From Candidatus Aphodomorpha intestinavium (GTDB lineage: Bacteria; Bacillota; Clostridia; Christensenellales; CAG-138): a DNA stretch of 29,871 bases. The stretch is taken from the NCBI GenBank assembly GCA_018713965.1, contig DVNZ01000133.1:1-29871 (forward strand), written 5' to 3'. Made by a program: the position numbers and the translations under genes. Every line of letters begins with the position of its first letter. Positions within the stretch are counted from its first letter, which is position 1. The notes under the pieces are model-generated. The model searched no databases, was not told the origin of the DNA, and saw only the letters and a list, made by a program, of their open reading frames with translations. Below are positions 12,711-15,491 of the stretch, in pieces.

Positions 12711-12739
12711 AGTGTATCATCGCGCGCGCGGGCCGTCAA
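12711..12739 (-). promoter_or_regulatory. sigma-A-type promoter for deoB
   Basis: TTGACG-17 nt-TACACT with TGn. The -35 overlaps the spoIIM stop codon. Confidence 0.65.
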
Positions 12740-13296
12740 CGTGCAAGCGCATACAGCAGCAGCGGCAGCAGCGCCGTCTCGAGCGCGGCGATGAGCAGCA
12801 GCGTCGCCCCCAGGTGCAGCCCCTCCGCAAGCGGCGGCGCGCCGCGCCGAGGCGCGCGCAGGCAGCGGATGGCGAACGCCGCAAGGCGCAGCGCCGCCGG
12901 CAGCAGCGGCGCCTGCGTCAGCGCGAACAGCAGCCACAGCACGGGGCTTTGCAGCAGCGCGCACAGCGCCGCCGCCGCGCCCGCGGCAAAGCCGCGCAGC
13001 GCCACGCAGAGCATCCACAGCGGCACCGTCCACGCCTGGAGCCCGCTAAACAGGATCGCGCAGGCCCATGCCCCCTCGTGCAGCAGCGAAACCGCCGCCA
13101 CGGCCAGCAGGCGCGGCGCGCTCCCGCCCGCGAGCAGCGCCCGCGCCGCATCGAGCAACGCGTCGCCCAGCAGCGGCCGGCAGGCCGCATAGCCGCAGGC
13201 GGCGCCCAGCATGAAGAAAAAGAAAAAGGCGACGCAGGATGGCAGGTTCTCCCGCCAGAACTGCGCCGCCCTCTGTTGCAGTCCGAACTCCCGCAT
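12736..13296 (-). CDS. spoIIM: divergent SpoIIM-like membrane protein (stage II sporulation protein M)
   Basis: Multi-pass hydrophobic protein with F.LGA.CG, LRGF..G and AALET patterns. Position between spo0A and deoB; sigma-E-like promoter upstream. Confidence 0.65.
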   Translation of the reverse strand: MREFGLQQRAAQFWRENLPSCVAFFFFFMLGAACGYAACRPLLGDALLDAARALLAGGSAPRLLAVAAVSLLHEGAWACAILFSGLQAWTVPLWMLCVALRGFAAGAAAALCALLQSPVLWLLFALTQAPLLPAALRLAAFAIRCLRAPRRGAPPLAEGLHLGATLLLIAALETALLPLLLYALAR

Positions 13297-13342: not shown

Positions 13343-14128
13343 TCAATCCCAGCGTGAAACGCCCTGCGTCGGCCGCAGGCGCACCTGCTCGGCCATGCGC
13401 GCGATGAACTCCGCATTGCCCGGCTTGCCGCGCTGCGCGTTGACCGAATAGCCGAAGCGCTCGTGGATCGCGGCGAGGTCGCCGTGCGACCACGCGTATT
13501 CGATGGAGCTGCGGATGGCGTGCTCCACCACGCGGCCGTGGCAGCCGTACGCCTCCCCGATGCGCGGATATATGTCGCGCGTGATGCGGATGGAGGCGGG
13601 CTGGCCCGACTCGGCGTAGAGGCGCACGGCGTCGCGCAGCATGTAATACCCGCGGTGATGCGCCGGCACGCCGATGCCCAGCAGCTCGCAGGAGATGCGG
13701 CGCTCGAGGATGGAGACGCTGTCAAACCCGACGGAAAGGCCGCGCTGCCGCTCGTTCTGCATGCCCTCCTGCAGCACGCGCAGCACCAGCAGCTCCGGCA
13801 GGTACGGCCTGATGAAGCAGCGCACCGTGTCGCCCGCCCACGGGGCCAGCAGCCGGTCCTCGGTGTATGGCGTGATGAGGAACAGCAGCGGCCGCCGCCG
13901 CTCCGGCAGCGCGTTGAGCGCCGCAAGCACCGGCTGGCCCTGCGCGCTGTCGAGCATCATCTCCAGCACCAGGATGTCCACGCGCCCCTGTTCGAGCAGG
14001 CGCAGCACCGTGGCGGCGTCGCCCGTGGGCGGCAGCAGGGTGATCTCCTCCAGGCCGCTGAACGCCTCCGCCAGCGCGGCGCGCTCCCGCTCGGATCTGA
14101 AGGCGAGCAGCAGATTGCGCTTCTCCAT
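13343..14128 (-). CDS. spo0A: Spo0A-family regulator with atypical (pseudo-)receiver domain
   Basis: C-domain LGIGVPAHHRGYYMLRDAV, IYPRIG..Y, VEHAIRSSIEYAWSHG, RGKPGNAEFIARMAEQVRL. Directly downstream of spoIVB. N-terminal receiver-like domain has E56 at the phospho-Asp position. Confidence 0.85.
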   Translation of the reverse strand: MEKRNLLLAFRSERERAALAEAFSGLEEITLLPPTGDAATVLRLLEQGRVDILVLEMMLDSAQGQPVLAALNALPERRRPLLFLITPYTEDRLLAPWAGDTVRCFIRPYLPELLVLRVLQEGMQNERQRGLSVGFDSVSILERRISCELLGIGVPAHHRGYYMLRDAVRLYAESGQPASIRITRDIYPRIGEAYGCHGRVVEHAIRSSIEYAWSHGDLAAIHERFGYSVNAQRGKPGNAEFIARMAEQVRLRPTQGVSRWD

Positions 14129-14162
14129 CGTCATCCCCCTCGTGTCGGCGCACCGGCGGCGC

Positions 14163-15435: not shown

Positions 15436-15491
15436 AATAGAACGGCTGGCTCTATGTTGCGCAAAGCGGCGCTCCGCTATGCCGCCCTTTG

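Follow-up and report, generated by a model that had tools for sequence, protein, structure and literature searches.

What governs entry into sporulation when the gene that occupies the place of spo0A, directly behind spoIVB, encodes a receiver domain in which the phospho-acceptor aspartate is replaced? This question is raised by a 29,871-nucleotide stretch of DNA from Candidatus Aphodomorpha intestinavium (contig DVNZ01000133.1 of assembly GCA_018713965.1; referred to here as the window), which encodes a Spo0A-type protein, P0001. A preliminary description of the window had proposed either that P0001 is the sole master regulator of sporulation, active without phosphorylation, or that it is a specialized paralog with a phosphorylatable Spo0A encoded elsewhere, and it regarded either case as a new mode of sporulation initiation. 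We find that a canonical Spo0A is encoded on another contig of the same genome, and we hold with considerable confidence that P0001 is a paralog rather than the master switch. The reading that we favor, and consider rather likely, is that this conserved, Spo0A-derived paralog is a phosphorylation-independent transcription factor controlled by its level.

The canonical Spo0A and the two-copy layout

The genome is a metagenome-assembled genome (MAG) of 1.58 Mb in 255 contigs that is 80% complete. A search for the Spo0A_C domain throughout the assembly gave four matches, the best of which is a D56-bearing Spo0A on contig C8 that scores above the TIGR02875 cut-off (Table 1), carries the receiver motifs VDD, LLDLIMP, SAM, and KP, and has the recognition helix SKVERAIRHAIEVAW. 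P0001, by contrast, reaches 107.5 bits, compared with the 200-bit cut-off of this equivalog model. The notion of a sole, phosphorylation-independent master regulator is therefore refuted, and this genome gives no ground for claiming a new way of initiating sporulation, while the intact pocket and helix of the C8 copy support the second proposal, a specialized paralog accompanied by a phosphorylatable Spo0A. Given that the genome also carries a sigmaG-like gene (416 bits), spoIIE, and six HisKA kinases, the ordinary route via phosphorylated Spo0A (Spo0A~P) is plausible. The spoIIE match is divided between two contigs (residues 180 to 763 on C225 and 4 to 177 on C246), probably because the assembly breaks there and not because the gene is disrupted.

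On C8, the genes beside spo0A are thpR, rlmH, and those for an acyl-ACP thioesterase and a response regulator, and not spoIVB. Congeners encode orthologs of this Spo0A with 86 to 96% identity: of the other four genomes in the genus, G001 to G003 have one, and none was found in G004, which is 67% complete. Contamination was considered as the source of C8 and rejected, since its GC content (0.706, compared with 0.681 for the genome) and tetranucleotide composition (correlation, 0.94) fit, the ortholog in G002 is 96% identical, and closed relatives hold both copies.

The search for such a pair covered 40 relatives (24 from this family and 16 from other families of the order); Spo0A_C is present in 38 of them and spoIVB in 35. 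Of the 24 family genomes, 17 have spoIVB followed by a lower-scoring Spo0A_C copy (92 to 133 bits) and a copy of 134 to 148 bits elsewhere, a layout that recurs in G026, G033, G035, G037, and G038 from other families. Both copies lie on one contig in G015 and G033, each of which is a single contig, so the pair is not a binning artifact. In G004, only the spoIVB-adjacent copy was found; in G029 and G030, the better-scoring copy is the spoIVB-adjacent one, and in G025 that copy stands alone.

Both copies were retrieved from at least 25 genomes and their key residues tabulated. The copies located elsewhere nearly always have SKVERAIRHAIEVAW; among 121 clusters of this canonical clade, the helix is exactly SKVERAIRHAIEVAW in 85 and differs by a single change, HSIE, in 32. 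The spoIVB-adjacent copies, on the other hand, appear in graded forms. Those of basal families have DD/D/K and RVERAIRHAIEVAW, those of several genera of the family have AD..D..K with LVERAIRNAIE, and those of the clade to which this genus belongs lack acidic residues at positions 10 and 11 and have a VEHA(I/M)R helix. Within the paralog, Glu56 is restricted to this species, G002, G004, and the nearest metagenomic kin (P0003 to P0007), whereas Asp56 is retained in G001, G003, and more distant members. His or Asn at the site of R214 is fixed in a 10-row clade comprising five genomes of genus g1 and five of other genera, with 99% support in the Shimodaira-Hasegawa-like approximate likelihood ratio test (SH-aLRT).

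In a maximum-likelihood tree that included 30 outgroup Spo0A proteins of the phylum, all copies located elsewhere form one clade with short branches (100% SH-aLRT). P0001 groups apart from this clade, among spoIVB-adjacent copies from the family: it belongs to a 99% clade made up of the five genus copies, which is nested in a 97% clade of 15 family copies with long branches. The basal spoIVB-adjacent copies are placed among the outgroup Spo0A proteins. Of the 30 outgroup loci, 28 have spoIVB immediately upstream of spo0A; P0001 occupies the same place behind spoIVB, with a 34-nt gap, and orthologous loci share the order recN-spoIVB-paralog-186-residue ORF-deoB-dacF (ORF, open reading frame). 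Tree, outgroup synteny, and conserved gene order together identify the gene in the window as the positional descendant of the ancestral spo0A. The label "canonical locus" given to it earlier is thus right by synteny, but the canonical functions are carried by the relocated duplicate.

Spo0A_C also occurs in genes of other shapes. In G027 (L065; G027:C4:34283-35000) and G036 (C3:20265-20567), from two other families of the order, the spoIVB-adjacent gene encodes only a stand-alone Spo0A_C domain of 115 to 117 residues, and a full-length canonical Spo0A is encoded elsewhere; in G009, the spoIVB-adjacent copy is extremely diverged. Four metagenomic proteins of 390 to 450 residues among the nearest relatives of P0001 (P0018, P0021, P0024, and P0039) have three or four tandem Spo0A_C-like stretches. 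The present genome also contains two small stand-alone Spo0A_C-like ORFs that score 28 to 33 bits, barely above the Pfam cut-off, and such small ORFs are common in the relatives.

A degenerate receiver joined to an intact DNA-binding domain

The translation of P0001 starts with MEK, and its residues 4 to 105 align without gaps to the receiver of Bacillus subtilis Spo0A (PDB 9phz chain E; phmmer). An alternative start at an in-frame upstream ATG (14206) was rejected because orthologs from other assemblies all use the Met of the 261-residue form. Where a phosphorylatable receiver has D10, D11, D56, T/S84, and K108, P0001 has F10, R11, E56, Thr, and R107: the two metal-binding residues are gone, the acceptor motif reads LVLEMML, compared with LVLDIIM in B. 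subtilis Spo0A, the Thr of LITPY aligns with the switch Thr, and FIRPY takes the place of the KP motif. These residues are as the preliminary description gave them, as are the codons that it named (13961-13963 and 13520-13522) and a full-length ORF with a Shine-Dalgarno sequence 34 nt after an intact spoIVB (TIGR02860, 377 bits). The pocket Lys is retained by nearly all other members of the paralog family, Arg occurring only in this species (P0001 and P0003).

The C-terminal domain is readily recognized as Spo0A_C (PF08769; 92.3 bits over profile positions 4 to 103 of 104), with sequence matches in the PDB to 1fc3 (E = 4e-21) and 1lq1 (E = 8e-20). Its recognition helix is RVVEHAIRSSIEYAW, compared with SRVERAIRHAIEVAW in the aligned 1lq1 and 1fc3, and departs from the canonical SxVERAIRHAIEVAW. 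Spo0A E213 and R217 are preserved as E202 and R206, and R214 is replaced by H203; all three Spo0A residues reportedly contact bases, according to the work on 1LQ1.

Sequencing error as the source of these substitutions was rejected. P0003, which is 98% identical to P0001 and has the same F10, R11, E56, R107, and H203, was found in other samples, on 23 contigs. The E56 and H203 codons are unchanged in an independently obtained DNA contig (run X8) and in contigs from RNA libraries (X15) that cover 13739-13980 and 13408-13618, all from chicken-gut runs.

By sequence alone, the N-terminal domain is barely recognizable as a receiver, with a weak Pfam match (E = 0.18) and a marginal result when the domain is used as single query against the PDB (E = 0.012). 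A profile of the paralog family, however, finds Spo0A receivers as its best receiver matches in the PDB (5wq0, 5e-16; 9phz, 6e-15; 1dz3, 3e-13). An AlphaFold2 model built from a 118-sequence alignment (predicted local distance difference test score [pLDDT], 88.5) has a complete (beta-alpha)5 receiver, in the order beta1-alpha1 to beta5-alpha5, a disordered linker (residues 124 to 140), and a six-helix Spo0A_C domain. Foldseek matched the receiver to the Spo0A receivers 5wq0 (template modeling [TM] score, 0.84 to 0.86) and 1qmp (0.82) and the C-terminal domain to 1fc3 and 1lq1 (0.84 to 0.87). Profile and structure matches thus identify the N-terminal domain as a Spo0A receiver that has degenerated, not one of foreign origin, and with a receiver fold and E56 in place of the acceptor Asp it has the features of an aspartate-less receiver (ALR). 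Degenerate pockets are common among uncultured Spo0A-like proteins: in the 125 full-length cluster representatives nearest to P0001, the DD-D-K set is present in 26, and Glu occupies the acceptor site in 19.

The paralog is under purifying selection. Frameshifts and relaxed selection in orthologs had been named beforehand as signs of decay; none of the more than 25 full-length orthologs retrieved has a frameshift or stop, and the comparison with G002 yields a ratio of nonsynonymous to synonymous substitution rates (dN/dS) of 0.20 for the whole gene, 0.28 for the pseudo-receiver, and 0.13 for the DNA-binding domain. The canonical copies of these two genomes give a dN/dS of 0.04, and with dN values of 0.171 and 0.020 the paralog has changed about 8.5 times as much at nonsynonymous sites. 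More distant pairs, with dS near saturation, give 0.40 to 0.51 for the paralog; taken overall, its dN/dS is about 0.2 to 0.45, and that of the canonical copy is 0.04 to 0.17. The paralog family (12 clusters, with identities down to 43%) shares 58 invariant positions, including the helix-turn-helix core and positions in alpha4-alpha5. Conservation is low in alpha1-alpha3 (0.47 to 0.57) and higher in alpha4, beta5, and alpha5 (0.74 to 0.79) and the DNA-binding domain (0.74). The face that normally contacts kinases and phosphotransferases has been freed from constraint, and the one that normally serves dimerization or output has not. A homodimer prediction with two copies of residues 1 to 128 scored 0.00, which provides neither support for dimerization nor evidence against it.

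Expression, proposed mechanism, and rival explanations

The neighboring spoIVB is the probable operon partner of the paralog. Scans of the 34-nt gap between the two genes detected no sigma-70-like promoter or terminator, and the gap is only 12 to 48 nt in most family genomes. Upstream of spoIVB lies a putative promoter of the sigmaG/sigmaF type (Table 1), a conserved block with diverging flanks. Its pattern, GHATR-17/18-CAHWHTA, the sigmaG-type consensus of B. subtilis work, was co-located (one mismatch at most) in 17 of 23 regions from 22 relatives and this genome, compared with 0.24 occurrences per 700 nt in shuffled sequences. The spoIVB gene of B. subtilis is known to be under sigmaF/sigmaG control. 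The short promoterless gap, the sigmaG-like promoter, and the control of B. subtilis spoIVB make joint production in the forespore a reasonable reading, and we tentatively suggest that P0001 is cotranscribed with spoIVB in that compartment. The -10 element is followed, 17 nt further downstream, by a perfect 0A box; TGTCGAA is found at the same place in G002 and TGTCAAA in L103, and neither G001 nor G004 has a box there. Conceivably, it could serve as an operator for Spo0A or for the paralog, or be a chance occurrence of a single 7-mer.

These data suggest the following picture. P0001 is the spo0A copy that stayed at the ancestral recN-spoIVB-spo0A position and diverged, and the slow-evolving relocated copy on C8, with its phosphorylatable receiver and invariant helix, is very probably the sporulation master regulator. 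Judged from its residues, a pseudo-receiver that lacks both metal-binding Asp residues, the acceptor Asp, and the pocket Lys should be excluded from His-Asp phosphotransfer, and P0001 is therefore probably kinase independent. With His in place of Arg214 in an otherwise intact DNA-binding domain, it may read an altered 0A-like site, although we give a change of DNA specificity only about an even chance. Its activity would be set by the amount made, most likely together with spoIVB from the conserved forespore promoter, and the conserved alpha4-beta5-alpha5 face might serve dimerization or interdomain control. D56E carries less weight than the preliminary description assumed, because both metal-binding Asp residues were lost much earlier in this lineage, while D56 is still present in sister species; Glu56 is thus a late change in an already dead pocket and not a designed phosphomimetic.

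A relative without the canonical gene bears on this scheme. In G022, which is 93% complete, spoIVB, a sigmaG/F-like gene, and a canonical Spo0A were looked for and none was found, yet an intact paralog is retained directly after recN (L125:2510-3355(-); G022:C37), at a locus from which spoIVB and the SpoIIM-like gene are missing. The 146-nt gap upstream of this paralog contains GGTCGAA and two AACGAAAT repeats 21 nt apart. Since this asporogenous relative kept the paralog, use outside sporulation has to be allowed for. The most specific version of our proposal would then be that spo0A was duplicated, that the master role passed to the relocated copy, and that the spoIVB-adjacent copy became a kinase-independent, sigmaG-made forespore transcription factor with an R214H-based specificity that is also useful outside sporulation; that all of these parts hold together is rather unlikely.

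The retention in G022 likewise matters for the possibility that P0001 works through the canonical protein, as a heterodimer with Spo0A~P or as a competitor for 0A boxes, and so tunes or ends Spo0A activity. Such a role would suit the finding that alpha4-beta5-alpha5, the usual dimer surface of receivers, is the best-conserved part of the pseudo-receiver, as well as the preserved E202 and R206, the 0A box just downstream of the operon promoter here and in G002, and the joint presence of both copies in almost all sporulating relatives; the atypical WhiI of Streptomyces, which heterodimerizes with BldM, provides a precedent (PMC12632262). We nevertheless consider it unlikely, because the persistence of the paralog in a genome that has neither canonical Spo0A nor spoIVB nor a sigmaG/F-like gene argues against a need for canonical Spo0A as partner, and the R214H change, fixed across several genera, speaks for a DNA target that has changed instead of being shared. 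The proposal of a sole Spo0A-type master regulator that is active without phosphorylation retains next to no probability: it could draw on the ancestral position behind spoIVB and on the ability of an acceptor-site Glu to mimic aspartyl phosphate in some regulators (PMC4395418), but Asp-to-Glu alone does not render Spo0A constitutively active (PMC4395418), P0001 falls below the TIGR02875 cut-off, and a canonical Spo0A is present on C8 with orthologs in G001 to G003.

That the resident copy has been drifting without function since a relocated duplicate took over the Spo0A role is, in our view, very unlikely, even though its dN is so much higher than that of the canonical copy, long branches run throughout the spoIVB-adjacent clade, the pocket residues were lost stepwise, nonsynonymous changes outnumber synonymous ones five to one within the species, and reduction to the C-terminal domain (G027 and G036) or extreme divergence (G009) occurs in relatives. 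A decaying gene is difficult to reconcile with a reading frame that stays open in all genomes examined, which span many genera, with the low dN/dS in the comparison with G002, above all in the DNA-binding domain, and with the invariant positions of the family; moreover, G022 retains the gene despite deletion of its neighbor spoIVB, and contigs from RNA libraries match it.

Several observations weigh against the favored reading of a conserved, level-controlled transcription factor made with spoIVB. The N-terminal domain gives dN/dS of 0.4 to 0.67 in more distant pairs, with dS near saturation, and such fast change is compatible with relaxed constraint on the pseudo-receiver. P0001 and P0003 differ by 5 nonsynonymous and 1 synonymous substitutions, too few to test, and the retention in G022 argues against a purely forespore role. 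Contigs from RNA libraries cover parts of both genes at a depth of 2 to 4, none bridges 14129-14162, and DNA carry-over is possible. A promoter within the 3' end of spoIVB is possible as well; by eye, a weak sigmaH-like match (AGGGATATT ... GAAT) is seen in the last 90 nt of spoIVB, where it overlaps conserved coding sequence. Closeness alone is no proof of an operon, since G025 likewise has its only spo0A, a canonical one, just 109 nt behind spoIVB. Finally, C8 is a short contig of about 6 kb in a MAG that is 80% complete.

The amino acid differences between P0001 and P0003 (E28G, A39D, T40A, R49C, and A62V) all fall in beta2-alpha2-beta3 (residues 28 to 62; 13943-14047(-)), which fits an outer face of the pseudo-receiver that is loosely constrained or changing adaptively. 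The adjacent spoIVB has 1 nonsynonymous and 2 synonymous substitutions in the same strain comparison.

Table 1. Positions of the features discussed (those given with two dots lie in the window; the others carry a contig or locus name)
Feature	Position	Strand	Basis
Coding sequence of the Spo0A paralog P0001, 261 aa	13343..14128	(-)	Spo0A_C and TIGR02875 scores; start as in orthologs P0003 to P0013
Pseudo-receiver domain, residues 1-123, no acidic pocket	13760..14128	(-)	AlphaFold2 pLDDT ~90-97, Foldseek, family profile
Codons of F10-R11, at metal-binding D10-D11	14096..14101	(-)	Alignment to 9phz_E and own canonical copy
Codon GAG (E56), at phospho-acceptor D56	13961..13963	(-)	Alignments to 9phz_E and canonical copy
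Codon of R107, at pocket Lys	13808..13810	(-)	Alignments to 9phz_E and canonical copy
Spo0A_C DNA-binding domain, residues 141-252	13373..13708	(-)	PF08769, PDB matches, Foldseek
Codon of H203, at Spo0A R214 in recognition helix	13520..13522	(-)	Alignments
Shine-Dalgarno-like GAGGGGGA	14134..14141	(-)	5 nt before ATG, within the 34-nt gap after spoIVB
spoIVB, 409 aa	14163..15392	(-)	PF05580, 266 bits; TIGR02860, 377 bits (above cut-off)
Perfect 0A box TGTCGAA	15429..15435	(-)	17 nt downstream of -10 of spoIVB promoter
SigmaG/sigmaF-like promoter of spoIVB, GCATA-18 nt-CAACATA	15453..15482	(-)	Block conserved, flanks diverge
Membrane ORF, 186 aa, SpoIIM-like	12736..13296	(-)	PF01944, 17.6 bits (below cut-off of 26.9); syntenic in orthologous loci
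Canonical Spo0A, 260 aa	C8:666-1448	(-)	TIGR02875, 268.3 bits (cut-off, 200); Response_reg, 80 bits
Small Spo0A_C-like ORF	G000:C175 (L004:1480-1839)	(+)	Spo0A_C search
Small Spo0A_C-like ORF	G000:C114 (L003, about 1500-1710)	(-)	Spo0A_C search
Canonical-clade Spo0A, sister genera	L040:67-870	(-)	
Canonical-clade Spo0A, sister genera	L060:67-870	(-)	
Canonical-clade Spo0A, sister genera	L030:213-1022	(+)	
Canonical-clade Spo0A, sister genera	L038:52-867	(-)	
Canonical-clade Spo0A, sister genera	L034:219-995	(+)	

Sister genera and known systems

Changes at the pocket are also seen in the canonical clade itself, in sister genera (Table 1; proteins P0165 to P0284). There, DG or DS replaces DD, and the acceptor site holds Glu in G006, G009, G016, G021, and G023 and Gly in G014 and G018; in these genomes, the helix SKVERAIRHAIEVAW is intact and the spoIVB-adjacent copy is degenerate too. 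Of the 121 clusters (90% identity) closest to the G023 protein, 47 carry an acceptor-site Glu, in each case together with an intact recognition helix; one of these, P0165, occurs on 894 contigs and bears the NCBI name Spo0A. Judged from their residues, these proteins are candidates for a truly kinase-independent Spo0A, and phosphorylation-independent entry into sporulation may apply to those sister genera and not to the present genome. For the question with which we started, the large Glu-acceptor clade of the main Spo0A lineage matters more than the gene in the window.

In MAGs, it is common practice to judge the ability to sporulate, and to choose the Spo0A protein, by whether spo0A is present and whether it follows spoIVB. 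Since that place is held in this order by a gene other than the master regulator, synteny-based annotation selects the wrong one, and claims of phosphorylation-free sporulation that start from the spoIVB-adjacent gene will be mistaken unless the whole genome is searched. At the same time, the locus provides a natural example of a two-component regulator that passes its role to a duplicate and becomes a pseudo-receiver protein, and the graded intermediates across genera (DD, AD, no acidic residue, and D56E) should be useful for asking how pseudo-receivers are controlled.

P0001 shares the architecture of a receiver followed by Spo0A_C with the canonical Spo0A proteins of B. subtilis, Geobacillus stearothermophilus, and Clostridioides difficile (TIGR02875; 9phz, 1qmp, 1dz3, 1fc3, and 1lq1), as well as the position after recN-spoIVB, the residues E213 and R217, and about 38 to 41% identity in the C-terminal domain. 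It differs from them in that equivalents of D10, D11, D56, and K108 are absent, R214 is replaced by His and H218-A219 by Ser-Ser, the score is 107 bits for a cut-off of 200, the rate of change is about 8 times that of the canonical copy of the genome, and it is not the sole copy. With sad67 and other constitutive alleles of Spo0A it has in common the idea of a Spo0A DNA-binding domain that works free of phosphorylation. Those alleles, however, are laboratory mutants of the master regulator, whereas P0001 is a natural, separate paralog with a changed recognition helix.

Second copies of Spo0A have been described before. Two paralogs were found in 10 of 118 Spo0A-positive genomes, all of them Clostridiales (Galperin et al. 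2022, 10.1101/2022.02.25.481979). In Clostridium (Acetivibrio) thermocellum, sporulation is lost upon deletion of the primary gene, Clo1313_1409, and no role is known for the second, Clo1313_0637 (PMC4890492). Compared by description only, Clo1313_0637 resembles P0001 in being a second, more diverged full-length Spo0A homolog. For neither this protein nor the two-paralog genomes do the papers report a dead receiver. In the genomes studied here, it is the diverged copy that occupies the ancestral locus.

Outside the Spo0A family, the closest parallels are ALRs, a recognized class in which Glu is the commonest replacement of the acceptor (26%; PMC4395418) and in which the acidic residues are degenerate and kinase-independent activity is expected (PMC4395418, PMC12632262). 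How pseudo-receivers are controlled has been described as an open problem, with the BldM/WhiI heterodimers as one model (PMC12632262). The outputs of ALRs are OmpR-, NarL-, or other domains, and Spo0A_C is mentioned as an output in neither PMC4395418 nor PMC12632262. Like ChxR, HP1043/HsrA, RitR, BldM/WhiI, and CmrT, P0001 has kept the receiver fold and replaced the phospho-acceptor, but whereas the first acidic residue and the Lys are usually kept in ALRs, both are changed in P0001.

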